Assembly (NCBI GenBank): GCA_964589125.1
Contig: CAZPSM010000002.1
Span: 1-52,803 of the forward strand
Direction: 5' to 3'
Length of the DNA: 52,803 nucleotides
Origin: an uncultured Hyphomicrobiales bacterium
Lineage (GTDB): Bacteria > Bacteroidota > Ignavibacteria > Kapaibacteriales > UBA2268
How positions within the stretch are numbered: position 1 is the stretch's first letter; each line of letters begins with the position of its first letter. The notes below the pieces were generated by a model. The model saw only the letters and a list, made by a program, of their open reading frames with translations, searched no databases and was not told the origin of the DNA. This document shows positions 2,208 through 46,015 of the stretch, piece by piece. The position numbers and the translations under genes are program-made.

Positions 2208-2735
2208 ATGATAACAAAGGAACAAAAGAAGGAAAAAGTTGCCGAACTCGTTGAAAAGTTCAAAAAGGCAAATAGCTACTATTTTATTGACTTCACCGGG
2301 ATGAATGTCGAAACGACAATCCAGTTTCGGAGGGAATTAAAGAAAAACGAAATGGAGTAAAAAAAAGAAAAAAATTCTTTAATTAGCCGTGCTTTGAGCG
2401 AATCGGGTGGTTTACAGGGTTTGAAGAAGGATATTTCCGGGCCGACAGGTATTATTTTCGGTTATGGCGACCCCGTCCGACCCGCGAAGCTAATTAATGA
2501 GCGCTACGAAAAGGAACAACGCCCCGTTTTCAAGGGAGCAGTTGTCGAAGGTGTGGTTTACGAAGCAGATAAATTGAAGACTTTGGCATCGTTACCATCG
2601 AAAACCGACATTATCGCAAGCATACTCGGAAGTTTGAATGCTCCTATTTCTGGTATTGTTGGGGCAATCAATTCTATTATGCGAGATGTTGCTTCGGTAA
2701 TTGAAGAAGTTGCAAAGAAAAATTCATCAAATTAA
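2208..2735 (+). pseudogene. rplJ: 50S ribosomal protein L10, frame interrupted by in-frame TAA at 2358-2360
   Basis: ATG 2208 (SD AAAGGTAGGA) gives MITKEQKKEKVAELVEKFKKANSYYFIDFTGMNVETTIQFRRELKKNEME, then TAA. The same frame continues KKEKNSLISRALSESGG... to TAA 2733-2735. The two halves together make a normal-length L10 between rplA and rplL. Confidence 0.85.
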
Positions 2736-3347: not shown

Positions 3348-6300
3348 ATGAAAAAAAATATTGAGAAAATTGCAGCCGAACAAGGGCTATCGATTCTTCG
3401 GGGCGAAGAGTCTGGCGTTACCCGACTAATTGAAAGGCTAAATTTCGGGAAAACGCGTCGCTTTACGGAATATCCCGACCTTCTTGGTGTTCAACTTCAA
3501 TCTTATGCTGAATTTCTGCAAGAGGATGTTCCCCCCGAAGAACGTCGCAACATTGGTTTGCAATATGCCTTCAATTCGAACTTTCCTATCGAGGATAATT
3601 CTGGTATCTATCAGTTAGAATTTATAGGTTATTCACTTGAAAGGCCTAAATATACCGAAGAGGAATGCCGGGCGCGCGAGTTAACCTACTCGAAGGCTTT
3701 GAAAGTGAGACTGCGACTTTCGAGTAAAGCCGACCCCAGTTCCGAAGATTACATAGAAGCGGTTGAGCAAGATGTTTATTTCGGAAATATCCCAGCAATG
3801 ACCTCCCGAGGCACTTTTATTATAAACGGTGCCGAACGGGTAATTGTCTCCCAATTACATCGCTCGCCGGGAGTCTTTTTCGATGTTACTGTTCATCCAA
3901 ATGGAACTCGCATTTATTCTGCCCGTATTATTCCGTTCAAAGGTTCTTGGCTTGAATTTATTACCGATATACATGAAGTTCTTACTACCTATGTTGACCG
4001 TAAGAAAAAATTTCTTACAACTACATTCCTTCGAGCACTTGGGTTTTCTTCGGATAACGATATTATTCAACTCTTTGAATTAGACGAGGCAGTAAAAGGT
4101 GCCAAGTTACGTGAAGAACATATCGGTAGAAAGCTTTCCGGCGATGTCGTCGATTTGCAAACTGGCGAAATTATTGCAACTCGCGATATGTTATTGACAA
4201 ATGACTTAATCGAAAAGATTAAGAAGACCCAAGTTCACGAGATAAGATTGTATAAGCCTTTCGACCCGAGCGAAGAACCAGTAATTGCTAGGACGCTTTC
4301 GAAAGACCCTACTCGCAATAAAGAAGAAGCTCTTGAATATATTTATAGGCAACTACGAACAACCGACCCACCCGATTTAAGTGCCGCCGAAGGCTTGCTC
4401 AAAAAACTATTCTTCGATGGTAAACGATACGACCTTGGAGCAGTAGGGCGATTCAAAATCAATAAAAAACTTAATATAGACGAGGACCCCGAGAACACAG
4501 TTCTTACCATCAACGATATTATTGTTACTATTAAACATCTGTTGAAACTTCACGATAGTAAGTCCAGTGGCGACGATATTGACCACCTTGGGAACCGCAG
4601 GGTACGAACCGTTGGCGAGCAACTTACTTCTCAAATTAATATAGGATTGACTCGAATGGCTCGAACCATCAGAGAGCGTTTGAGTGTTCGAGAAGCAGAA
4701 AATTATACTCCACAAGACCTTGTTAATGCAAGAACGATTAACTCGGTTATAAACCAATTTTTTGGGACCAATCAACTGTCCCAATTTATGGACCAAACCA
4801 ATCCTCTTGCTGAATTGACCCATAAGCGTAGGACTTCGGCTTTAGGTCCCGGTGGTTTAACCCGTGAACGTGCTGGTTTCGAAGTCCGCGACGTTCATTA
4901 CACTCATTATGGCCGACTTTGTCCAATCGAAACACCCGAAGGACCCAACATTGGGTTAATATCGTCTTTGGCTATATATTCTCGAATCAATGAGCGAGGA
5001 TTTATCGAGACCCCATACCGTAAAGTTGTTAATGGTGTCGTTACCAACGAAATTGAATATATTACCGCCGAAGACGAAGACGACAAAGTCATTGCTACTG
5101 TTCACACTCCAATAGATAAAAATGGGAAAATAATTGGCGATAAAATAAAGGCGAGGGTATCGGGCGATTTTGTTATTGTTTCACCCGAAGAGGTGGACTA
5201 TCTCGATGTCTCTACCGAGCAAATTGTCAGTGCCGCTGCCGCATTGATACCATTTCTTGAACACGACGATGCTAACCGTGCGCTGATGGGTTCTAATATG
5301 CAGCGGCAATCTGTTCCACTGGTACGCCCGGAAGCACCAATTGTTGGAACTGGGATGGAAGCAAAAGTTGCCCGTGATTCTCGTACTCTTCTTCTTGCTG
5401 AAGGCGACGGAGTTGTAACCTACGTAGATTCCGAGACGATTCGGATACATTACGAGGATAATAGAACTGAAGCAGAAAAGTTGTCCGATTTTAAATTCAA
5501 AGAAGAAAAAGAATATAAGCTAATAAAATTTTTCCGAACTAATCAAGATACTTGTGTTAATCAAAAACCGATTGTTAGGGTAGGCCAACGGGTTCATAAA
5601 GGTATGCCTATTGCCGATGGTGCCTCGACCGACCAAGGTGAACTTGCTCTTGGGCGTAATGTTCTGGTTGCCTTTATGCCTTGGCGGGGTTACAACTTTG
5701 AAGATGCTATTGTGGTTTCCGAGCGTCTTGTTGCTCGGGATATTTTTACTTCTGTTCATATCGAAGAGTATTCGCTTCAGGTCCGCGATACAAAGCGGGG
5801 CGAAGAGGAATTTACACGCGACATTCCCAATGTTTCCGAAGAAGCCACCAAAGATTTGGACGAAGATGGTTTGGTCCGCGTTGGAGCAAAAGTTCGCGAA
5901 GGTGATATTCTGATCGGGAAAATTACACCGAAAGGCGAAACCGACCCGACTCCCGAAGAAAAACTGCTCAGAGCTATATTTGGCGACAAAGCAGGCGACG
6001 TCAAGGATGCTTCCTTGAAGGCTCCACCGGGTTTGAAAGGAGTTGTTATAAATACGCGACTATTCACCAGACGAGTTGTTAGGGTAGATTCTGAAATAGA
6101 AGAAAAACGAAGGATTGAGCAACTTTCCAAAAGAGAACAAGAGAAAATGGCTGAGTTAGCAAAGAAAGCAGTTGAAAAACTTGCTAAAATTGTTGATGGG
6201 TATAAAACTTATGGCTTGAGACTGACAAACGGGGAAGTTATCTTTCGTAGCGGCCAAACTATAAAAGAAGAAGATGTGTTAAATTACTTTGGCAAATCTA

Positions 6301-7196
6301 TCACTTATATTGACCATATTGATTTAAATGGTCCAATTATAGCAGACGAGGAGCGGGAGCGAATTCTTCGCCAAATGTTGCGAAATTATACCGAAGAGAA
6401 AGAACAAATTACTGCCCAATTTCGTGCATTACGGAATAAGGCAATAATCGGCGATGAACTCCAGCCCGGAATAATGAAAATGGCTAAGGTTTATGTAGCA
6501 AAGAAACGGAAATTAATGGTTGGCGATAAAATGGCTGGGAGGCATGGGAACAAGGGTATTGTTTCTATTATTGTTCCGCCAGAAGATATGCCATTCCTTC
6601 CCGATGGTACACCGGTAGATATAGTCTTGAATCCCTTGGGCGTTCCATCTCGTATGAACCTTGGACAGTTGTTCGAAACTGCTCTTGGTTGGGCTGGGCA
6701 AAAACTTGGTGTTCGATTTGCAACACCAGTGTTCGATGGAGCAACTTGGGAACAAGTTTCTGAATTTCTAAAAATGGCAGGATTGCCTCCCGATGGCAAA
6801 ACCGTTCTCTACGATGGACGAACAGGTGAGCCGTTCCACGAAAAAGTTACCGTTGGTGTTATCTATATGATGAAACTTGCGCATATGGTCGAAGATAAAA
6901 TCCATGCTCGCTCGATAGGACCTTATTCCTTGATTACTCAACAACCATTAGGAGGTAAAGCCCAATTTGGTGGGCAGCGTCTCGGTGAAATGGAGGTATG
7001 GGCGCTCGAAGCCTACGGTGCAGCCCATACACTTCAAGAGATGCTTACAATTAAATCCGATGATGTCGTTGGACGTGCAAAAGCATACGAAGCAATAGTC
7101 AAAGGCGACAATATGCCGGAACCAAACGTTCCAGAATCATTTAATGTTCTTATTCGTGAACTCCAGGGACTGTGCCTGGATGTTGAAATTGAGTAA
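3348..7196 (+). CDS. rpoB: DNA-directed RNA polymerase subunit beta
   Basis: 1282 aa with hallmark beta motifs (GNRRVR, FFGTNQLSQFMDQTNPL, RHGNKGIVS, GGQRLGEMEVWALEAYGAA). Confidence 0.98.
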   Translation: MKKNIEKIAAEQGLSILRGEESGVTRLIERLNFGKTRRFTEYPDLLGVQLQSYAEFLQEDVPPEERRNIGLQYAFNSNFPIEDNSGIYQLEFIGYSLERPKYTEEECRARELTYSKALKVRLRLSSKADPSSEDYIEAVEQDVYFGNIPAMTSRGTFIINGAERVIVSQLHRSPGVFFDVTVHPNGTRIYSARIIPFKGSWLEFITDIHEVLTTYVDRKKKFLTTTFLRALGFSSDNDIIQLFELDEAVKGAKLREEHIGRKLSGDVVDLQTGEIIATRDMLLTNDLIEKIKKTQVHEIRLYKPFDPSEEPVIARTLSKDPTRNKEEALEYIYRQLRTTDPPDLSAAEGLLKKLFFDGKRYDLGAVGRFKINKKLNIDEDPENTVLTINDIIVTIKHLLKLHDSKSSGDDIDHLGNRRVRTVGEQLTSQINIGLTRMARTIRERLSVREAENYTPQDLVNARTINSVINQFFGTNQLSQFMDQTNPLAELTHKRRTSALGPGGLTRERAGFEVRDVHYTHYGRLCPIETPEGPNIGLISSLAIYSRINERGFIETPYRKVVNGVVTNEIEYITAEDEDDKVIATVHTPIDKNGKIIGDKIKARVSGDFVIVSPEEVDYLDVSTEQIVSAAAALIPFLEHDDANRALMGSNMQRQSVPLVRPEAPIVGTGMEAKVARDSRTLLLAEGDGVVTYVDSETIRIHYEDNRTEAEKLSDFKFKEEKEYKLIKFFRTNQDTCVNQKPIVRVGQRVHKGMPIADGASTDQGELALGRNVLVAFMPWRGYNFEDAIVVSERLVARDIFTSVHIEEYSLQVRDTKRGEEEFTRDIPNVSEEATKDLDEDGLVRVGAKVREGDILIGKITPKGETDPTPEEKLLRAIFGDKAGDVKDASLKAPPGLKGVVINTRLFTRRVVRVDSEIEEKRRIEQLSKREQEKMAELAKKAVEKLAKIVDGYKTYGLRLTNGEVIFRSGQTIKEEDVLNYFGKSITYIDHIDLNGPIIADEERERILRQMLRNYTEEKEQITAQFRALRNKAIIGDELQPGIMKMAKVYVAKKRKLMVGDKMAGRHGNKGIVSIIVPPEDMPFLPDGTPVDIVLNPLGVPSRMNLGQLFETALGWAGQKLGVRFATPVFDGATWEQVSEFLKMAGLPPDGKTVLYDGRTGEPFHEKVTVGVIYMMKLAHMVEDKIHARSIGPYSLITQQPLGGKAQFGGQRLGEMEVWALEAYGAAHTLQEMLTIKSDDVVGRAKAYEAIVKGDNMPEPNVPESFNVLIRELQGLCLDVEIE

Positions 7197-7225: not shown

Positions 7226-10200
7226 ATGCAACCAAGGTCTATTCCAAGAAAGGGGTTTCGTAGGGTTACTATAAAGTTAGCTTCTCCGGATGCTATATTA
7301 GAGCGTTCTCATGGAGAAGTTACTAAACCCGAAACCATAAACTATCGTTCTTATCGACCCGAAAAAGATGGGCTTTTCTGTGAAAAGATATTCGGACCAG
7401 TTCGCGATTGGGAATGCGCTTGTGGCAAATATAAGAGAATTAGGTATAAAGGGATTGTTTGCGACCGCTGTGGAGTTGAAGTTACCAATAAAACTGTTCG
7501 TCGCGAAAGAATGGGGCATATTATGCTTGCCTCTCCGGTGGTGCATATCTGGTTTTTAAGAAGTTTACCGAGCAAAATAGCTGCTGTATTGGGGATTCCA
7601 GCAAAAGATTTAGAAAAAATAACTTATTTCGAAACTTATGTTGTTGTAAACCCAGGGCGTTTATCGGACTCCTTCAAAAAGTATGATTTAATTTCGGATG
7701 AAGAATATAATAAAGTAATGCAGCAAATCCCGGAGGAAGAAAAATATCTCGACGACGACGACCCCAATAAATTTATTGCCCTAATGGGGGGCGAAGCAGT
7801 AAAAGAGTTGCTCCGTCGCCTCGATGTAGAATCGGAATACTTTAATTTGCGTCAGCAAATGCGCGAGGAAACTTCTGCCCAAAAGAAACAAGAACTTTTA
7901 AAGAGGTTAAAAATTCTTGAGGCATTTCTCCCCGATGAACGCACCGGTGAACCAAGAAATAAACCCGAATGGATGGTGTTGGATATTATTCCTGTAATTC
8001 CACCCGACCTGCGTCCGTTGGTTCCGCTCGAAGGAGGTCGTTTCGCAACATCAGATTTAAACGACTTATACCGAAGATTAATTATTCGTAATAACAGATT
8101 AAAGAGACTGCTCGATATTAAAGCACCTATGGTAATCGTTCGCAACGAACAAAGAATGCTGCAAGAAAGCGTCGATGCTTTGTTCGATAGCACAAGAAAA
8201 GTAACAAAGGCTGAACCACAAAGACCATTGAAATCTCTTGCCGATTCTTTAAAGGGCAAGCAAGGTCGTTTCCGACAAAACTTGCTTGGTAAACGAGTCG
8301 ATTATTCGGGTCGCTCGGTAATTGTTGTTGGTCCCGAGTTGAAGATTTATGAGTGTGGTTTGCCAAAAGATATGGCTGTTGAATTGTTTAAGCCGTTTAT
8401 AATCCGTAAACTTATTGAACGAGGGCATGTTAAAACCGTCAAAAGTGCTAAAAAGATGGTTGAACGCAAAGTTACCGAGGTATGGGACATTCTGGAAAAA
8501 GTAATTGAAAATCATCCTGTACTTTTGAACCGTGCTCCGACACTGCATCGGCTTGGTATTCAGGCTTTCCAACCACGCTTGATTGAAGGAAAGGCTATCC
8601 AATTGCATCCGCTTGTATGTACCGCATTCAATGCAGACTTCGATGGCGACCAGATGGCTGTTCACGTTCCTTTAAGTTTCGAGGCTCAATTGGAAGCCCT
8701 GCTCCTTATGCTTGCACCCCACAATATTATGCATACACAAAATGGCGACCCAATTGCCGTTCCTTCACAAGATATGGTGCTTGGAGTTTATTATATTACC
8801 AAAGCGAAGTCCGGTGCCAAGGGTGAAGGTAAGTATTTTGCATCGCGAGATGAAGTGATAATTGCTTATAACAATGGTTCCATTGACTTACACGCAAAAA
8901 TCAAAGTTCGGCTCGATGGTAAACTTGTTGAAACTACAACCGGAAGAATTATTTTCAACCAAATTGTTCCCAAAGAAATTGGATTCTTAAACGAGTTGCT
9001 CACTAAAAAACGCTTGCGTCAAATTATAGGAACTTGCTTCCGCACAGCTGGGTTAGCTGTAACGGTCGAGTTTCTCGACAATTTGAAGCAAATCGGGTTC
9101 GAATTTGCAACGCGTGGTGGCTTATCTGTGAGTATTTCCGATGTTGTGGTTCCTCGGGAAAAATACGAGATAATTGAGGCAGCACAGAAACGAGTCGATG
9201 AAATTGAAAATGCTTATGTCAACGGAGTTATTAGTTTTGGCGAACGATACAACAAAATTATTGATACTTGGTCAAATGCTACCAATCGTGTTGCCGATAA
9301 ACTTTACAACGAAATTTCGAAAGTTTCCCAAGGTTTCAACACATTTTGGATGATGCTGGATTCACAAGCAAGGGGTTCAAAGGAACAGATTCGGCAGTTG
9401 GCTGGTATGCGTGGTCTGATGGCGAAACCAAGAAAATCGGTTTCGGGCTCTGCCGGCGAGTTAATCGAAAATCCAATCCTTGCAAATTTTAAAGAAGGGC
9501 TTTCGATTCTCGAATACTTTATTTCGACTCATGGTGCTCGGAAAGGTCTTGCCGATACCGCTTTAAAAACTGCCGATGCCGGATATCTAACACGTCGTTT
9601 GCACGATGTTGCACAAGATGTCATAGTAACTGAACAAGACTGTGGAACAATTCGTGGTGTTATGATGACTGCTTTGAAAGAGGGTGAAGAGGTTAAAGAA
9701 GAACTTTCCGAACGAATTCTTGGTCGTGTTGCTTTGTGGGATGTAATTGACCCGAGAACCGAAGAGGTTCTTTGCAAGGCAGGTGAAATTATCGACGAAG
9801 ACATTGCCAAGAGAATCGGCGATTCGCCAGTCGAAGAAGTTATGATTCGAAGCGTATTAACTTGTGAGTCGCGGCACGGGGTTTGTGCAAAATGCTATGG
9901 TCGAAATCTTGCAACGGGCAAATTAGTCGATGTTGGTGAAGCGGTTGGAACGATTGCCTCCCAATCGATTGGAGAGCCGGGAACTCAGCTAACGCTTCGT
10001 ACTTTCCATACTGGTGGAACTGCTTTGCTAATTGCTTCCCAGTCCTCGGTTACAGCAAAATTCGATGGAATTGTGAAATTTGAGAACGTTCGTACTGTCA
10101 AGTACGAAGAAGATGGGAACGAAGTCCAAGTTGTTGTAAGCCGAAGTGGAACCATTATTATCGTTGACCCCGAAAGCAATCGTGACTTAACTAAATATGA

Positions 10201-11506
10201 TGCTATGTATGGTGCTGTCTTGAAAGTTAAAGAAGGTGATAGGGTTGCAAAAGGTGAATTAATTTATGAGTGGGACCCATACAACGCAACCATTATTACC
10301 GAAGTTAGTGGACGTGTCCGATTTAAAGATTTGATTTACAATATTACTTATAGGGAAATCAACGACGAACAAACCGGGCATATTACAAAGGTGGTTATTG
10401 AATCAAAAGACAAGACTAAACAACCATCGATAGAAATACTGGACGACAGCGGGAAAGTAATTCGTACCTATTCTATCCCCGTTAAAGCACAATTACGTGT
10501 GGATGAAGACGAATTCATCGGGGTTGGGACGCCACTGGTTAAAATTCCTCGCGACCTTGGAAGGATGCGCGATATTACCGGCGGTTTGCCTCGCGTTACC
10601 GAACTTTTCGAAGCCAGAGCACCACAAAACCCCGCATTTGTTTCGGATATCGATGGGGTTGTTACTTTCGATAAGGTTAAACGTGGCCAAAGAACCCTTT
10701 ATGTTACTTCGAACGATGGCAAGACCCGAATAGAATACAATATTCCTTTCGGAAAGTATATTCTTGTGCAGGATGGTGATTTCGTTCGTGCCGGTGAGCG
10801 TCTTACCGATGGCGATATCAACCCGCACGATATTTTGCGTATTAAAGGACCAAATGCTGTCCAAGAATATCTTGTGAACGAAATTCAGGAAGTTTACAGA
10901 ATGCAGGGTGTGAAAATCAACGATAAACATATAGAAATTATCGTTCGACAAATGCTGCAAAAGAATAGAATCGTTGATTCTGGCGATTCCCGTTTCCTTG
11001 AAAATGACTATGTTGACCGAATAAGAGTGCTCGACGAAAATGAAAAATTAAAGAAACAAGTTGTTATTACCGATAAAGGTGATTCCAAGTTCAAAGTTGG
11101 TCAGATTGTTATGAAAGATAAATTTAGAGAAGTCAACCAAGATTTGAGGAAGAAGGGGAAGAAGGTCGCGCAATCCCGACCTGCCGAGCCTGCTATCGCC
11201 GAACCAGTTTTACTTGGAATTACCCAAGCTTCGCTTACAACAGAAAGTTGGCTTTCGGCAGCCTCTTTCCAAGAAACAACTCGTGTTCTTTCCGAAGCAG
11301 CTGTCGAAGCCAAAGACGATTTCCTTTATGGGTTGAAAGAAAACATTATTCTCGGGCAATTGGTACCCGCTGGAACTGGTTTACGCCATTACCAAGATAT
11401 GGTGGTTACAAGCCAGGTAGGGAATATCTTCGGCGGGGAAATTTCCTTGCCAGAGCATAAGAAGGAGGAATTTATCGTCCAAAAAGAAAGCGAAGCAGTT
11501 AAATAA
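7226..11506 (+). CDS. rpoC: DNA-directed RNA polymerase subunit beta'
   Basis: Zn-finger CxCGKY..C..CGVEV and catalytic [12 protein letters not shown]. Start placed at ATG 7226 after GGGTGG; the ORF track begins at an upstream TTG (7214). Confidence 0.98.
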
Positions 11507-11685
11507 TTTTTGGTTTTAATGTTGTTTTTGGGCTGTTCAAAGAGAAAAATGCTCGGTGGATTGTTCTGAATTCTTGCTAATGTAGAAAAATTGTTGCCAA
11601 TTCGCTCGAAGGGTAACTTGCTTTTATGATTTTGTCTGGGGACAGCCCAATTTTTTGACTTTTGTTGAAAAAAATAGGTTCGTTA

Positions 11686-13772
11686 ATGTTCGATATAAAA
11701 AAAGTAAGAAATATAGGCATTGCCGCACACATTGATTCGGGGAAAACAACCCTAAGCGAAAGAATCCTTTTTTATACCGGTAAAATCCATCAAATCGTCG
11801 AAGTTCGTGATAAGTCGGGAGCTGGTCCAACACTCGATTCAATGGCTCTGGAACGCGAAAAAGGAATAACTATTCAATCTGCCTCGACTTTTTTCGAGTG
11901 GAAAAATTACCATATAAACCTCATTGATACTCCCGGACACATTGATTTTACCGTCGAAGTCGAAAGAGCTTTGCGTGTGCTCGACGGGGCAATCCTTGTC
12001 CTTTGCGGTGTATCGGGTGTTCAAAGCCAAACAATTACTGTCGATAGGCAAATTCGCCGTTACAATGTTCCGCGTCTTGTATCAATAAAGTTGACCGTTC
12101 GGGTGCAAACCCCGATAAAGTTCTTCAACAAATGAAGGAAAAACTTTCGCTCCGCCCTATTTTGCTTACAATGCCAATTGGACTCGAAGACCAATTCGAA
12201 GGGGTTGTTGATTTAATTAATAGAAAAGCAATTTATTTCGAAGGTGCAAATGGAGAATTCGTTGTCGAACGGGATATTCCTCAAGATTTAATCGACGAGG
12301 CTGAATATCGTCGCTTGCAGATTATCGAAACACTTGCAGATTTCGATGACGAAATAGCCGAAAAATTCCTTTCGGACGAAGAAGTTGAACACGATAAACT
12401 TCTTCGAACGATTCGAAGATTGACTATTGCACAGATGGTAACACCGGTTTATGTTGGAACTGCAAAGAAAAATAAGGGAGTCCAGCCTTTGCTCGATGGG
12501 GTAACTCTTTTCTTGCCCGACCCTACCGAAAGAATTAACGAAGCGCTGGACCTCGATAACAACGAAGAACGGGTACCGTTAGATTGTAGTCCTAATAAAC
12601 CTTTCGTGGGATTAGCATTTAAACTCGAAGACGGTCGCTACGGGCAATTAACTTATATGCGAATATATCAAGGAAAAGTTCGCAAAGGGGATTTTATTTA
12701 CAACATCAAATCTAAAAAGAAGATAAAAGTTCCACGTATAGTTCGGATGCATGCACAAGAAATGCATGATATAGAAGAGGCTTATGCTGGCGATATCGTT
12801 GCTATGTTTGGTGTCGAATGTTATTCGGGCGATACATTTACCGATGGAAGCGTCAACCTATCGATGACTTCAATGTATGTTCCAACACCGGTGATTGAAC
12901 TTTCGGTTGCTCCGAAAGAAAAAACTGCCTTACCAAATTTTTCGAAAGCGCTGAACAGATTTCAAAAGGAGGACCCGACATTCCAAGTGACCCGCGACGA
13001 AGAGAGCGGTGAAACAATAATTAAAGGAATGGGAGAACTCCATCTCGAGATATATATTGAGCGAATAAAACGAGAATACAATTGCGAAGTTGTTATTGGT
13101 AAGCCAAAAGTTGCCTACCGGGAAACGATTCTTCGCCTTTCGGAATTTAATTATACTCATAAGAAACAAACCGGTGGAGCAGGGCAGTTCGCTCGGGTAG
13201 CCGGATACATCGAACCTATCGAGCCACACGAAGGCAAAGAATATGAATTTGTCGATAAAATTGTTGGCGGAGTGATACCAAAGGAGTATATCCCAGCGTG
13301 CGATAAAGGTTTCCACGAACAATTACTCGAAGGAATCTTGATTGGGCAACCAATTGTGAATGTCCGAGTTGTTCTTAACGATGGGCAAACCCATCCGGTG
13401 GATTCTTCGGAAATGGCATTTAAGTTGGCTTCGAAATATGCTATAAAAGAAGCATTGGCAAAGGCTTCGCCAGTTATTTTAGAACCTATTATGAAATTGG
13501 AAGTAACTGCACCCGAGGAGTTCCAAGGTAATATAATTGGACAAATTAACCAACGGCGGGGAATTATACACAACACACGAATAGAAAATGCTTTCGTTGT
13601 TGTAGAAGCCGAAGTCCCGCTGAAAGAAATGTTCGGTTATTCATCGGAACTGAGAAGTGCGACGCAAGGAAAAGGAGAATTTACGATGGAATTCTTGCGT
13701 TATGCACAAGTTCCTAAATCGGTTCAAGATGAGATAATCGAAGAGTACAAGAAAAACAAAGCGAAGAAATAA
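11686..13772 (+). pseudogene. EF-G paralogue (mitochondrial EF-G1 / spd-EFG1-like), frameshifted near 12079-12083
   Basis: Two ORFs (11662-12135 and 12132-13772) together make one EF-G. G1 is AHIDSGKT and G3 is DTPGH. The frame changes just before [11 protein letters not shown], which reads on the second frame from 12081. The domain IV tip HKKQTGGAGQF and HPVDSSE are intact. Confidence 0.85.
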
Positions 13773-13860
13773 AATATTTGAAAGTATATAAAACCTTTGT
13801 AGTAAGTGAAAACAATAATTCCCCGTTTTTTTATAATTTGCTTATTTGGTTTGCTTAAAA

Positions 13861-14757
13861 ATGGACGAGTTGTTCGAAAATAGAGAAGAGAAATTCCAAA
13901 AGAATCCCAACGAAGCGGCAAAAACTGAAAATGGTGATGTAAATGATTTAGAGCCGGGGAAGTGGCGCGAATACGAAGAAACACTAAATCTGCAATATTT
14001 CACTATTTGGGATACACCCGAACGTGACCCATATAATTGGACAAAGCATACAATACATGGTAATTCCCCCGTCGAAATTCCTCGTCAATGTATGCTACGT
14101 TTTTCGAAAGAAGGGGATTTGCTGCTCGACCCATTTTGTGGCTCTGGAACAACGTTGGTTGTTGCAGCACACCTGAAACGAAAGTGTATCGGTATCGAAA
14201 TAAACCCCAACATCGCTCAACTTGCAAAACTTAACTTGGAACAACAGACACTTGAGTTCGACAATGGGGAATTATCTTCTTGGTTAAGACAACAAGAAAT
14301 TATTATTGGCGATTCTACAAAATTACTCGATATGGGGTTTCAACCAGAAAGTTTCGATTTTTCCTTTGCTCATCCTCCATATTGGGAACTTGTTAATTAT
14401 AGCGAAGAATATGGCAATGTTGATGGGGACTTGTCGAACGAAACTTCTCTGGAAGGTTTCTTACAAAAATTAGGGGTGGTTTTCTCGGGGGTGTTCCATA
14501 TGTTAAAAAAGGGGCGATTCTTTTGTGTATTAATTGGAGAAGATTTTAAAAAAGGAGGTAAAACGATACCATTAGATTTCTACGCAATGCAAGTTGGAAT
14601 GGAAATTGGCTTCGAGTTTTACTCCAAAGTGATTAAGGTTACTCGATTTGCGAGTTCAAGGCAAGGAAAAATTAATATCAACAAATATCGCTCGCTTCGT
14701 TCTAATTATTTCATTTGCAACCACGATTATGTTATTATTTTCAAGAAACCAAAATGA
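13861..14757 (+). CDS. type II DNA methyltransferase (N6-A or N4-C class), motif I upstream of motif IV
   Basis: SAM-binding motif LLLDPFCGSGTT followed by CIGIEINPNIAQLAKLNL, then catalytic FDFSFAHPPYW about 80 aa downstream. ATG 13861. The stop overlaps the downstream nuclease ATG (ATGA). Confidence 0.8.
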   Translation: MDELFENREEKFQKNPNEAAKTENGDVNDLEPGKWREYEETLNLQYFTIWDTPERDPYNWTKHTIHGNSPVEIPRQCMLRFSKEGDLLLDPFCGSGTTLVVAAHLKRKCIGIEINPNIAQLAKLNLEQQTLEFDNGELSSWLRQQEIIIGDSTKLLDMGFQPESFDFSFAHPPYWELVNYSEEYGNVDGDLSNETSLEGFLQKLGVVFSGVFHMLKKGRFFCVLIGEDFKKGGKTIPLDFYAMQVGMEIGFEFYSKVIKVTRFASSRQGKININKYRSLRSNYFICNHDYVIIFKKPK

Positions 14758-15722
14758 CCCACTCCGAAGTTATTCAAGTTGTTTCTAATTGATTTAAACA
14801 AAAATCCGAGGTTGAAATTGTAACTCGATTTAGTTATGCTTTTCCGGTACCGGACATTCAGGTTCAGTTTACCGATGGGACATTAGCCCAAATAGAGTGT
14901 AAGCCAAGCAATGCAAATAGAAGAGAATATCTTACAGGATTAGGGCAAGCAATAGCATTCTGTCGTCACTCCGATAAAGCATACTTAGCATTGCCGACGA
15001 ATGAGTATAACTTGATGAAAGAATGGATCTGGACAAATTTTATCGGTATAATTCGTGTTGAACCGAATAGTGTAGTTGTCGAACGGGAACCAGAGCCTCC
15101 CCTAAATGTATTAATTTCGAAAGAACCTATTAAAAGAGGATATGCATACTATCGTGACCTTAAGTTTTTCGAAATTTACCGGGTATTACAATCGATTTAC
15201 AATGCTTTGAGTAGAACAAAAGATAGAAAGGCGATAGACCAAGAAATATGGAAGAGTGTAACCGAACTAAGGGATTGGCATTCATCGAAACAATCGCATT
15301 TGTTGAACATTAAATTGTTGCTACGAGACCTCAAGCTTTTTGATATTCATTCATATGATATATTGCCTTTGGGTATCGAACTTTTGTCAATTGAACCCGA
15401 GAATAAAAATAAAATAAAAGAGCTAATCCGAAAAATATTCTTGATTGAAGGAAACTATATCGATATAGTTGGATTAATTCAGGAAGTTAATGATGCTTAT
15501 GAGTCTTTTGAAAATAGGGCAATTTTTAATAAACATCTAGAAGAAGCAATTTTATTGGATAAATTAGCTAGCAAAGATACCAATGTAAAAAGAGATTTGA
15601 AGGACATTTTAGGAATCTTGAAAGAATTGGAAATAATTGGTGGTTGGAAAAAGGTAGGTGTTCAAGGCGGCAAATATCCAGTGATATGGAAAAATATTAT
15701 TCATTTTGTAAAGTTTAGGTAA
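14754..15722 (+). pseudogene. PD-(D/E)xK restriction endonuclease candidate with in-frame TGA at 14790-14792
   Basis: ATG 14754 is coupled to the methyltransferase stop. After the TGA at codon 13, the same frame reads ..FPVPD(14850-14855)IQVQFTDGTLAQIECK(14895-14903).., a PD...ExK motif. The track ORF (14991-15722, TTG start) begins downstream of this motif. Confidence 0.6.
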
Positions 15723-15917
15723 ATTTATTGTGATTGCTTCGTTTTGAGTTTTTCTGCTGGCTTGAATTTGCGAAAAAACTCTTGTTAGAATGATTCCGAC
15801 TTTATTGTGTTTAAAATAAAATTTTTTTGAATTTGCTTTTGTATTTAATTTTTTTGTAATTTTGTAGTCTCTTTATTTTGATTTTTGTTAAAAGTAGGTA
15901 TTTAAGGGAGATATTGA

Positions 15918-16304
15918 GTGCCAACAATAAGTCAATTGATTAGGAAACCAAGGAGGAAGGTAACTCGCAAGAGCAAGTCGCCAGCGTTATCGAGTTGTCC
16001 ACAGCGGCGTGGTGTTTGTACACGTGTTTATACAACGACGCCGAAGAAGCCAAATTCAGCCTTGCGGAAAGTTGCCCGTGTTCGTTTAAGTTCTGGATAT
16101 GAAGTTACAGCATATATTCCGGGCGAAGGACATAATTTGCAGGAGCACTCAATTGTATATGTGCGTGGAGGTCGTGTTAAGGATTTGCCCGGTGTTCGTT
16201 ACCATATCGTTCGTGGTGTTGCCGATACCCAAGGTGTCGATGGCAGAAAACAAGGACGTTCGAAATATGGTTCTAAACGACCTAAACAAGCAGCATCGAA
16301 ATAA
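15918..16304 (+). CDS. rpsL: 30S ribosomal protein S12
   Basis: GTG start after [18 protein letters not shown]..., [10 protein letters not shown], and [17 protein letters not shown]. Confidence 0.97.
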
Positions 16305-16339
16305 AAAATTAAGATGTTAATTAAAAAATAATTTATAGA

Positions 16340-16807
16340 ATGAGAAAGAAGAGAGCGGAAAAAAGAACAATTGAAGTTGACCCAAGGTATCACGATTTAG
16401 TTGTGGCACGCTTTATTAATACTATATTGAGAAAAGGGAAAAAGAGTCTTGCCCGAAAAATTGTTTACGATGCTTTCGAAATTATTAGCCAAAAATCGAA
16501 ACAGGACCCATTAGAAGTTTTTAGAAAGGCAATATCGAACGTAGCTCCAGTTATTGAAGTTCGCTCTCGTCGTATTGGTGGAGCTACCTATCAAGTGCCA
16601 GTAGATGTTCGCGAAGACAGAAGAATTTCGTTAGCCTTACGGTGGCTAAGGTTATATGCAAAGTCAAGAAAAGAAAAGTCGATGAGCGCGCGTTTAGCAT
16701 CTGAAATTCTCGCAGCAGCCAACGGAGAAGGTGCCTCTGTCAAAAAGCGCGAAGATACGCACCGAATGGCAGAAGCTAACAAAGCTTTTGCTCATTTCAA
16801 GTGGTAA
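16340..16807 (+). CDS. rpsG: 30S ribosomal protein S7
   Basis: S7 motifs ([27 protein letters not shown]). Located after rpsL. Confidence 0.97.
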
Positions 16808-16852
16808 AAAAATGCGTCTGTTCTTTGTCAATTGATATGCTGGAAGTGTGTT

Positions 16853-18907
16853 ATGCCTCGCACGGTTGAAATATCGAAAGTCCGGAATATCGGAATAATG
16901 GCACATATCGATGCGGGGAAAACAACCACTACAGAAAGATTTTTGTTCTACACTGGCTTTCTTCATCGCCCCGGGGAAGTTGACGAAGGAACTGCTTTTA
17001 TGGATTATATGGAGCAGGAGAAAGAACGTGGAATTACTATTACTTCGGCAGCCACAACTTTTTTCTGGAATGAACATCAAATTAATCTTATAGATACTCC
17101 GGGCCACGTGGATTTCACTGCCGAAGTTCAACGTTCTCTAAGAGTTCTCGACGGTGCTATTGCTATCTTTTGTGCCGTTGGTGGTGTCGAACCGCAGTCG
17201 GAAACAGTATGGCACCAAGCGGAATTATACAATGTTCCGCGTATTGCCTATGTAAACAAGATGGACCGATTAGGCGCCGATTTTTTCCATGTTCTTGATA
17301 TGATGAAAACAAAGCTAAACGCAAATCCCGTTCCAGTAGTACTTCCAATTGGTTCGGAAGATACTTTTTCCGGTGTGATTGATTTAATTTCCGAAAAAGC
17401 AATATTTTTCGATGACGAAACCAAAGGCTTGAAATTCTCATATACCGATATTCCAGATGATTATAAAGAAATTTCTTTGGAGTGGCGGGAAAAGTTGATT
17501 GAATCGGTAGCAGAAATCGATGATTTTCTACTCGAAAAGTACTTGAAAGAAGGGGTATTATCCGAAAGTGAAATTAAGTCGGGGTTGCGAAAAGGAACGC
17601 TTTCGAATAGGTTGGTTCCTGTTCTATGTGGGTCGTCGAAAAAATATATTGGAATTCAGCCTTTGCTCAATGCTATTCTGGACTATTTGCCATCCCCAGC
17701 CGATATTGGCGAATTCTTTGGTTTCGATGTCAATCGTTACGACAAAAAGGTAGTGAGGAAGGCAAACGATTCGGAGCCGTTTTCTGGGATTGCATTCAAG
17801 ATACTTTCCGACCCTTATCTAAAGAAACTGACCTTTGTTAGAATATATTCTGGCTCGCTGAAAGTAGGGCAATCTGTTCTAAATGCAAGTGTTGGCAAAA
17901 GGGAACGGATTCAAAAAATATTGCGACTCTATGCAAACCGCAAGGAGGAAATTTCCGAAGTTTTTAGCGGTGAAATAGTCGCTTTCCCAGACCTTAGAGT
18001 AACAAAGACCGGCGATACTCTTTGCGAGGAAAAGCATCCTATTCTGTTTGAACGTATTCTGTTTGCCGAACCCGTAATTAATCAGAGAATCGAGGCAAAA
18101 ACACTTGCCGATAGAGACAAATTGATTGATTGCTTGAACAAGTTTCTCGACGAAGACCCAACCTTCAAATATAAATTCGATGAGGAAAGTGGCGAAATTA
18201 TCATTAGCGGAGTTGGGGAATTGCATCTTGAAATACTTGTTGACCGTTTGAAACGGGAAAATAATTTGGATGTTCGAATCGGTAAACCGCAGGTTGCTTA
18301 TCGCGAGACAATTCTCGAGCCGTTCGAGCAAGAATATAGTTTCGAGCGGCAGATTTCTGGAAAAAACAATTTCGGATTTGTAAAAATACTTATTAAACCA
18401 ATGCATCAAGGCTCGGGAAATACAATTAAGTTTAGCATCGATGACAAAGAGCTTCCCCGCTCGTTCTGGCCTGTTATTGAAGAAGGAATTAGGGAAGGTC
18501 TTCAAATAGGCTTCCTTGGGTATCCCGTAACCGACGTCGAAGTAGAAGTCGTAGGTTCTAAGTATGAAAGAGAAAATTATACAGAATTGGGATATAAAAT
18601 TGCTTCTTCAATAGCAGTTCGTGAAGCATTAAGAAAAGCAAAATCAGTGTTGCTCGAACCTGTTTTTAAGGTGGAAATAGTTTTACCGGAAGAATACGTT
18701 GGCGATGTAATTTCCGATTTCAATTCGAGAAAAGGAAAGATAGAACAAATAGACCAGAGAGGGAATATCCAAGTTGTCAAAGGAGTTGCTCCGCTTTCGG
18801 AAATGTTCGGCTATGTAACTTCTCTTCGCTCCTTGACCCAAGGGCGTGCATCATACACGATGGAATTTTCGCACTACGAGCCTGTAGAACAGAAATCGTT
18901 CAATTGA
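16853..18907 (+). CDS. fusA: elongation factor G, str-operon copy with divergent domain IV tip
   Basis: ATG 16853 ([25 protein letters not shown]). G motifs are intact (DTPGH, NKMD), and the [20 protein letters not shown] tail is present. The domain IV loops read [10 protein letters not shown] and [11 protein letters not shown] instead of the canonical sequences. Confidence 0.93.
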
Positions 18908-45049: not shown

Positions 45050-46015
45050 ATGGGAAACTATAAGAAAAAAGATGGGACGAAAACGAGTGCATTCGGCTCT
45101 CCTGGAAGAATCAATCACGATTCTACCCCTTTTTATACGAGCAGACTATATGAAGGGTTGCCCAAAGAAGAATTTGTAAAATATACGGAAAACCCAATTC
45201 TGTCTCAGTATCTGGATAAAGTTTTTTGTAAGTCAAGCGAAAAGATGGAAGAACTACCAGATAATAGCGTTCATCTAATGGTTACTTCGCCGCCATATAA
45301 CGTAGGAAAGGAGTATGATGAGAACCTTACCTTAAATGAGTATAGGGTATTTTTAAAAAGAGTATTGAGTGAAGTTAAAAGAGTTCTTGTCCCCGGCGGA
45401 AGAGTGTGTATTAATATCGCCAATCTTGGAAGGAAACCGTACATTCCTCTCCATGCATTTATCGTTGAAGATATGCTTGATTTAGGATTTTTAATGCGAG
45501 GTGAAATCATTTGGAATAAAGCTTCAAGTGGTAGTCCTTCAACTGCATGGGGTAGCTGGCTTTCCGCTAAAAATCCGACATTAAGAGACATTCATGAATA
45601 TATTTTGGTCTTTTCTAAAGGGATGTTCGCAAGGGAAAATCTCGGAAGAAAAAGCACAATTTCTAAAGAGGAGTTTTTGGAGTTTACTAAAAGTGTTTGG
45701 ACATTTGCCGCAGAGCCAGCAGGAAAAGTTGGGCACCCGGCACCGTTCCCTGTTGAATTACCCTATAGGTTGATTCAACTTTACACCTTTGAGGGAGAAA
45801 TTGTTCTGGACCCATTTATAGGAAGCGGACAAACAGCAATCGCAGCAATAAAAAGCAGACGGTACTATGTTGGATATGATATAAATGAGGAGTATGTAAA
45901 ATTAGCAGAAAGGCGAACTAAAGAGTTTGTTCTAACTTTTTATGCTTCAAAGTTATTTGAATTTGAAGAAAAAAGGAATGATAAAGATGGCGGAACTTCC
46001 GACAACACAACATAA
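45050..46015 (+). CDS. beta-class DNA methyltransferase (N4-cytosine/N6-adenine family; SPPY suggests N4-C)
   Basis: Motif IV LMVTSPPYN lies near the N-terminus. HPAPFPVELPYRLI followed by VLDPFIGSGQT and YVGYDINEEYVKLAERR lie near the C-terminus. Confidence 0.88.
   Translation: MGNYKKKDGTKTSAFGSPGRINHDSTPFYTSRLYEGLPKEEFVKYTENPILSQYLDKVFCKSSEKMEELPDNSVHLMVTSPPYNVGKEYDENLTLNEYRVFLKRVLSEVKRVLVPGGRVCINIANLGRKPYIPLHAFIVEDMLDLGFLMRGEIIWNKASSGSPSTAWGSWLSAKNPTLRDIHEYILVFSKGMFARENLGRKSTISKEEFLEFTKSVWTFAAEPAGKVGHPAPFPVELPYRLIQLYTFEGEIVLDPFIGSGQTAIAAIKSRRYYVGYDINEEYVKLAERRTKEFVLTFYASKLFEFEEKRNDKDGGTSDNTT

Follow-up and report, generated by a model that had tools for sequence, protein, structure and literature searches.

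What is a restriction-modification (R-M) cassette doing between the genes for RNA polymerase and those for the ribosome, and is it still a weapon? The question is raised by a 52,803-nt stretch of DNA, the whole of which we call the window, from an uncultured Hyphomicrobiales bacterium (GTDB Bacteroidota; Ignavibacteria; Kapaibacteriales; UBA2268; assembly GCA_964589125.1, contig CAZPSM010000002.1). The source genome, G000 in what follows, is a metagenome-assembled genome of 144 contigs that is 94% complete. In the window, the last base of rpoC is at 11506 and the first of rpsL at 15918, and everything in between lies on the + strand: a gene for elongation factor G (EF-G), one for a DNA methyltransferase and one for a restriction endonuclease. 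An initial annotation saw here three co-directional genes, a native EF-G followed by an acquired, AT-rich R-M pair working as a defence module. The coordinates and the shared direction hold up; three intact genes do not, for EF-G is split by a 4-nt deletion and the nuclease frame contains an in-frame TGA (Table 1). The account we favor, and consider probable, is that a native EF-G gene is followed by an old R-M cassette that would have been inherited, occasionally exchanged, eroded and deleted within a clade of two genera. The nuclease would be dead in G000, most likely leaving a solitary methyltransferase.

Consider first the nuclease. Its 44 homologs, about 320 to 335 residues long, align with it from end to end, and across 29 aligned sequences W13, P33-D34, E48-C49-K50 and R57-E58-Y59 are invariant, the catalytic residues being arranged as PD-x13-ECK. 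The TGA in G000 occupies codon 13, a single transition away from the TGG of the invariant tryptophan, and no ATG, GTG or TTG follows it until 14991, on the 3' side of the catalytic PD...ECK motif. The frame is otherwise clean over 309 codons and keeps all of the invariant residues. Recoding of TGA was considered and discarded: TGA ends 258 of the 1249 long open reading frames (ORFs) and the only tRNA-Trp in the genome is tRNA-Trp(CCA), which means the standard code. The gene otherwise has what one looks for in the endonuclease of a Type II R-M system, namely an ORF coupled through ATGA to the methyltransferase, the invariant catalytic motif and the fold of a PD-(D/E)XK nuclease, and its pairing with the methyltransferase is conserved in bacteria and archaea. 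Subject to the accuracy of the assembly, one gene of the pair is intact rather than both. A change of TGG to TGA at Trp13, ahead of the catalytic motif, would have knocked out the nuclease. Because the stop precedes that motif and nuclease lesions recur in other lineages, G000 most likely harbors a solitary methyltransferase beside a nuclease pseudogene that is still young, rather than an active defence.

The nuclease belongs to no family in Pfam or NCBIfam, and a profile search with the nuclease family against the sequences of the PDB gave no match; it was the fold that placed it. The AlphaFold model is a confident one (mean predicted local distance difference test score, pLDDT, 92.5; predicted template modeling score, pTM, 0.88), and its best match in the PDB is the Type IIS enzyme PaqCI (8em1; E = 2e-10, probability 1.00, TMq 0.65), followed by small PD-(D/E)XK nucleases, 3dnx and NucS/EndoMS among them. 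In PaqCI a PD-(D/E)XK nuclease domain is linked with helical modules for DNA recognition. The model of the present enzyme is likewise read as a PD-(D/E)XK domain with a helical C-terminal domain, which, judged from the match, probably binds DNA. The likeness has its bounds: sequence identity is 9 to 10%, PaqCI has 482 to 491 residues and the nuclease 322, TMt is 0.46, and the cleavage mode of the nuclease may be IIS or IIP.

A dead nuclease is common in this family. Besides the TGA at W13 in G000, independent lesions occur in at least six other lineages (G numbers denote genomes and L numbers individual loci). G123 has a TGA at W13 as well, together with many other stops and frameshifts in both genes. 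In L049, from a G123-like organism, W13 is intact and a 1-nt deletion falls near codon 46, with the methyltransferase intact. G068 has a TAG at the invariant E58 beside an intact methyltransferase, an ectopic copy in G118 has a TGA at G98 and a frameshifted methyltransferase, and the nuclease of G121 has suffered deletions. L023 and L024, from two assemblies of a G115-like species, share a 1-nt deletion near codon 203, the gene being intact in three other assemblies. Both are long metagenome contigs; L024 has tuf split in two (10164-11376; 267 and 135 residues) and L023 has rpsL called truncated (7232-7510; 92 residues). Because both assemblies carry such indel errors in tuf or rpsL, their nuclease frameshift should be viewed with caution. 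Seven family genomes have the cassette; five of them retain an intact methyltransferase and three an intact nuclease. Decay of R-M systems to orphan, or solitary, methyltransferases is well known, and since nuclease lesions recur across lineages a real knock-out in G000 is plausible.

Table 1. Features between rpoC and rpsL, in window coordinates
Feature	Position	Strand	Details
Long hairpin followed by T6, just 3' of rpoC	11528..11656	+	closing stem 11 bp, GGGCUGUUC.../...GACAGCCC
EF-G, N-terminal GTPase piece	11686..12135	+	ATG at 11686; frame lost at ~12079, ends at TGA 12133-12135; PF00009 E = 2.7e-47; TIGR00484 positions 5-135
EF-G, frameshift site	12079..12083	+	4-nt deletion relative to the G001 ortholog, by DNA alignment
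EF-G, remainder from G4 motif to domain V	12081..13772	+	546-residue piece, TIGR00484 693.6 bits
Segment without BLAST counterpart in G001	13782..15817	.	2,036 nt here, 240 nt in G001; indel refined to about 13815-15721
Promoter-like motif	13827..13843	+	TTTTTTTATAATTTG; 18-34 nt before the methyltransferase start
DNA methyltransferase (N6-adenine or N4-cytosine)	13861..14757	+	298 residues, intact; PF01555 E = 2.8e-27, two stretches in swapped order
Restriction endonuclease	14754..15722	+	322 codons, TGA at codon 13; ATG overlaps the methyltransferase stop (ATGA)
In-frame TGA in place of invariant Trp (VSNWFK)	14790..14792	+	alignment with homologs
Conserved element upstream of rpsL	15850..15886	+	TTTTTTTGTAATTTTGTAGTCTCTTTATTTTGATTTTT; ~55-70 nt before rpsL in all genomes compared, cassette-bearing or not

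How long has the cassette been here? Our comparisons drew on 41 genomes of the order (G000 and 40 relatives), on 130 genomes of the family from 55 genera, and on a sister genus of 10 species (G013, G115 to G119 and G121 to G123 are sister-genus genomes). Against G001, a relative from the same genus, 10001-13781 and 15818-17000 of the window align, EF-G being 90% and RpoC 94% identical, and the DNA between has no counterpart. The cassette, a Type II R-M pair of about 1.9 to 2.0 kb, thus sits as an accessory insertion in a short AT-rich spacer between the EF-G stop codon and the conserved rpsL element, and its methyltransferase is present in only 7 of the 130 family genomes. To that extent the pair is acquired, as the initial annotation had it. 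What does not stand is the implied recent arrival. In the sister genus the identical site is occupied by an intact cassette in G117 and in the single-contig genome G115, by one with stops and frameshifts throughout both genes in G123, and by mere fragments in G121 (of the methyltransferase, residues 20-59 and 270-297; of the nuclease, residues 1-32; with a rearrangement after them). The cassette is also at this site in L049 and in further assemblies. The site is empty (95 to 139 nt) in G013, G116, G118, G119 and G122. The outcome that the annotation itself named as refuting it, relatives sharing the content of the junction, is thus found in part. Synteny also settles a worry about the contig, which is not chimeric at either junction (13773-13860 or 15723-15917): the gene order is identical in the complete G115, in G117, in G123 and in several independent assemblies, and the order rpoC, EF-G, methyltransferase, nuclease, rpsL, rpsG, fusA, tuf is found as well on the Ignavibacteria contigs that carry the nearest nuclease homologs.

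The divergence of the cassette points the same way. The methyltransferase of G000 shares 76 to 78% identity with its counterparts in G115, G117 and L049 (77.5% for G115 and 76% for G117), which by these figures makes it about as diverged as the housekeeping genes (80 to 82% for EF-G and 76 to 77% for FusA), with the nuclease at 56%. Nuclease copies of both genera form one clade (support 99/98), and in a tree of concatenated housekeeping genes the genus of G000 is sister to the sister genus. We read the cassette as an old resident of the EF-G/rpsL site in the clade of the two genera rather than a recent arrival. Clean loss of the cassette evidently occurs, since the empty G013 is the sister of the intact G115. 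Also present in G001 is a 14-mer, AATTTATTGTGATT, matched exactly and beginning with the final base of the stop codon of the nuclease, a faint hint of deletion there instead of insertion here. Another kind of ending may be visible in G121 and G120 (L043, 5894-8942, and L042, 1-1007), where relics of the cassette (seen in G121) come after EF-G and a convergent gene for a secreted subtilase comes next, while rpsL is on a separate contig. The arrangement has the look of a genome rearrangement that broke at the old cassette.

The EF-G gene is a different matter, for it appears to belong. An orthologous gene lies directly 5' of rpsL in 19 of the 40 relatives, across the order, at a distance of 76 to 353 nt (2,145 nt in G000). 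Because of this we take EF-G to be native to the rpoC-rpsL interval, its normal location in the order, and the reading of the initial annotation is supported on this point. Its start agrees with that of the G001 ortholog. Relative to that ortholog, 4 nt are deleted two codons 5' of the NKVD G4 motif (cttgCCTTCatc versus cttg----tatc), and an open frame of about 695 to 730 residues in all relatives searched is reduced to 574 here. Broken in this way the gene falls short of a TIGR00484 equivalog, its pieces scoring 219 and 693.6 bits (cut-off 659.4) in a frame that is not open. The intact G001 ortholog scores 946 bits. Programmed frameshifting was tried as an explanation and set aside: 12070-12085 contains no slippery heptamer, and the product of a -1 slip would lack one residue in the strand that precedes NKVD. 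Elsewhere in the window, the str-operon copy of EF-G (16832-18907) scores 882 bits on TIGR00484; with the intact G001 ortholog standing for the upstream copy, both EF-G genes pass the cut-off. A third, EF-G2-like paralog (30 to 34% identity) occurs in most relatives and was not found in the 94%-complete G000.

Two groups of observations weigh against the account of an inherited cassette whose nuclease has died. The first concerns descent. The cassette tree departs from the species tree: the G000 nuclease groups with L049 and the ectopic G118 copy instead of standing as outgroup to all of the sister-genus copies, and the G115 and G117 methyltransferases are 72% identical, less than either is to the copy in G000. 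Because the order within the clade does not follow the species tree, descent is unlikely to have been purely vertical and some lateral exchange of alleles is likely. A glimpse of such exchange may come from the G115-like species, where L018-L020 and L023/L024 (locus 6001-6972) differ at 16 nuclease codons (9 synonymous and 7 non-synonymous) and by the 1-nt deletion, against three differences in about 4 kb of EF-G, spacer and rpsL flanks and one in the methyltransferase, which suggests recombination with a diverged nuclease allele. Taken further, the EF-G/rpsL spacer might be a recombination docking site that alleles enter and leave through its conserved flanks, with lateral exchange rather than one ancestral insertion accounting for the pattern. 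This we regard as possible, though we lean away from it. Tree incongruence and the diverged nuclease alleles within one species count in its favor, as do the empty sites without relics in G013, G116, G119 and G122 and the ectopic copy in G118. The relics in G123 and G121 speak instead of decay in place, G001 retains the sequence directly after the nuclease stop, the copies of the clade are monophyletic, and DNA identity of the flanks between the genera is only about 80%.

The second group concerns the assembly. Outside the cassette, a comparison of all conserved genes of the window with G001 turned up two lesions, the deletion in EF-G and, in rplJ, an in-frame TAA (2358-2360). The latter sits where clustered substitutions have produced an A-rich run (window 2340-2380; GTAAAAAAAAGAAAAAAA versus AATCAAAGTTGCTAAAAA in G001), and a stop of this kind in an essential gene looks like an assembly artefact, which lowers trust in the other single lesions of the contig. 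Because of it, the nuclease TGA or the EF-G deletion could be errors too. Given a genome in 144 contigs and an EF-G broken here and intact in every relative, we allow a real, minority chance that the nuclease TGA is one. The fuller proposition, that all of the lesions are assembly or consensus errors and that the living organism has an intact EF-G and a working Type II R-M system, we think unlikely. In its favor are the artefact-like stop in rplJ, an EF-G that is intact in all relatives searched, and a nuclease frame that is clean apart from the one stop. Set against it, the change from TGG to TGA is a single transition and not a homopolymer error, the EF-G deletion falls in non-repetitive sequence, and nuclease knock-outs are common in the cassette family across independent assemblies.

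If the account of an old, eroding cassette is right, how would what remains be expressed? The initial annotation found no convincing intrinsic terminator between rpoC and rpsL and had the cassette fed by read-through from rpoBC. A consensus scan of 11507-15917 indeed gave no terminator-like site on the + strand, with nothing terminator-like in the EF-G/methyltransferase or nuclease/rpsL spacers, and an Rfam search of 11000-16500 at E <= 1 gave no match. A terminator-like hairpin with T6 is there all the same, right after rpoC. It folds at -38.7 kcal/mol (z = -2.5), better than any of 200 shuffles, and a canonical GC-rich hairpin with a T-run occupies the same position in G019 and in each of the ten sister-genus relatives. 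The hairpin is probably a terminator or attenuator between rpoBC and EF-G and, because of it and the canonical terminators of the relatives, rpoBC is probably a separate transcription unit. Closer to the methyltransferase is the promoter-like motif TTTTTTTATAATTTG, with similar motifs before the methyltransferases of G115 and G117, and a near-identical copy is found within the conserved element about 60 nt before rpsL in every genome compared. That element, undisturbed on the 3' side of the cassette, probably serves the rpsL operon as promoter and leader.

Put together, rpoBC transcription would be largely halted at the hairpin, and the methyltransferase, translationally coupled to the nuclease frame, would draw its transcripts both from the host-type promoter-like motif in front of it and from read-through out of EF-G, which we infer because there is no terminator between the two genes. 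Such transcripts would continue into the rpsL region. Read-through into the cassette is plausible from EF-G alone; a defence module supplied by rpoBC is not borne out, with a hairpin in the way, a promoter-like motif nearer by and a nuclease truncated before its catalytic motif. The genome has 40 occurrences of the form TTTTT[AG]TAATTT, most of them 11 to 150 nt upstream of ORFs and in the same orientation. Seen at 13827 and 15850 in the window, TTTTT[AG]TAATTT(T)G is a candidate general promoter element of G000, which we take to resemble the Bacteroidetes TAnnTTTG -7 box.

The two copies of the motif invite another thought, that the cassette was inserted with a target duplication of the rpsL promoter core and that the duplicate now drives the methyltransferase. 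We think this improbable. TTTTTTT[A/G]TAATTT does flank the cassette in direct orientation, with an exact 14-mer in G117 and an 11-mer in G115. Local alignments of left with right spacer are no better than shuffles, however (p = 0.09 to 0.92), and T-rich repeats of 11 to 14 nt fit a general promoter-like consensus found throughout the genome.

Composition was the ground for calling the pair foreign. The five 60-nt GC (guanine plus cytosine) counts of the initial annotation are exact (0.433, 0.433, 0.317, 0.300 and 0.283), and beside its GC-rich neighbors the cassette does look AT-rich. The genome as a whole has 38.15% GC, and its ORFs of 250 residues or more average 38.8% (standard deviation 3.0). 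By this measure the nuclease is low (34.3%, 6th percentile of long ORFs), its C-terminal half more so (31.2%, 0.8th percentile), and the methyltransferase is typical of the host (38.4%, 44th percentile); the codon usage of both genes is nearer the genome mean than that of most genes. It is rpoC, EF-G, tuf and rpsL that stand apart, at 41 to 46% (78th to 99th percentile), and a local contrast with ribosomal and RNA polymerase genes exaggerates foreignness. The Ignavibacterial copies compared show the same gradient: relative to the flanks, GC is a few points lower in the methyltransferase and 8 to 10 points lower in the nuclease. Because it recurs at both chromosomal sites, low nuclease GC reads as a trait of the family and not a mark of recent entry. 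A recently acquired and active defence module in the stream from rpoBC to str is accordingly the least likely reading, and we give it very little credence: for it speak the absence from G001, the few family genomes with a copy, the low nuclease GC and the empty terminator scan, and against it the shared site in the sister genus, a methyltransferase with housekeeping-like divergence and host-typical composition, the stop before the catalytic motif, the hairpin where relatives have canonical terminators, and the promoter-like motif.

What the locus offers, we believe, is a clean natural ageing series of an R-M cassette at one fixed site: intact, nuclease dead, both genes dead, fragments, empty. 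The stages are easy to order, the site lying within the most conserved gene neighborhood of the cell. There is a practical caution in this too, that "defence module" calls need a check for an intact nuclease. This is a known kind of system in an uncommon and well-conserved location, with an unusually complete decay series, and it leaves the current understanding of R-M systems as it was. A Type II pair within an essential, translation-related cluster presumably has a parallel in the NmeBI system of Neisseria meningitidis, between pheS and pheT, with another enzyme family and in another phylum.

Copies of the family occur in other housekeeping clusters as well. At further Ignavibacteriales loci (L025-L028) the cassette lies co-directionally between rseP (plus an ORF of 112 to 116 residues) and dnaX, with 7 to 13 nt between nuclease and dnaX and no mobility genes nearby; another Ignavibacteriales copy is downstream of folE-rnhB, and an archaeal copy adjoins an integrase gene. 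It is tempting to see in the EF-G/rpsL spacer a long-lived docking locus for one R-M family, with copies elsewhere in housekeeping clusters (rseP/dnaX, downstream of rnhB) and alleles swapped via conserved flanks, the nuclease being repeatedly sacrificed and the methyltransferase persisting as a solitary epigenetic enzyme expressed along with the translation apparatus. As a whole this is doubtful.

Type II R-M complexes can be mobile without linked mobility genes, and their insertions beside stop codons and within operon-like structures have been described (Furuta, Abe and Kobayashi 2010, PMC2853133). The present cassette resembles those units in being a two-gene methyltransferase-nuclease pair, with no integrase or transposase nearby, in a spacer beside a stop codon in a co-directional housekeeping cluster and with an empty site in a close relative. 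It differs in having no significant flanking target duplication or inverted repeats, and in that the insertion appears old and common to two genera rather than a strain-level polymorphism. Patchy R-M distribution and conserved orphan methyltransferases have also been discussed (PMC6471742). Like orphans that arise from R-M decay, the G000 enzyme appears to have lost its nuclease first and been kept, with relatives forming a series from intact to pseudogene to empty; unlike orphans known to be functional, its persistence is read from the intact ORF.

That survivor is of some interest in itself. Its S-adenosylmethionine (SAM) motif, DPFCGSG, stands about 80 residues ahead of the catalytic HPPY, and it aligns with the Thermus enzyme 2zie in swapped order (residues 67-129 with 218-280 of 2zie, and 134-228 with 12-100). 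Both motifs expected of a Type II methyltransferase are therefore present, with an atypical His at the first position of HPPY against (D/N/S)PP(Y/F). Such permuted enzymes have been defined as "topology E", with M1.BcnI and M4.BstF5I as members (bioRxiv 10.1101/2023.12.13.571470). The G000 protein has the features of this class, which are a match to beta- or D-type profiles, the SAM motif before the catalytic motif and a spacing below 100 residues. It is like M1.BcnI and M4.BstF5I in matching the beta-type profile PF01555, in that spacing and in having no large inserted recognition domain, and unlike the usual members in having HPPY in place of (D/N/S)PPY. We predict a permuted N6/N4 methyltransferase, whose sequence is compatible with either N6-adenine or N4-cytosine as its target. 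Farther along the window, at about 45743-45955, is a second PF01555-like methyltransferase, an open frame of 321 residues that is 34% identical to the first over the SAM-motif region.

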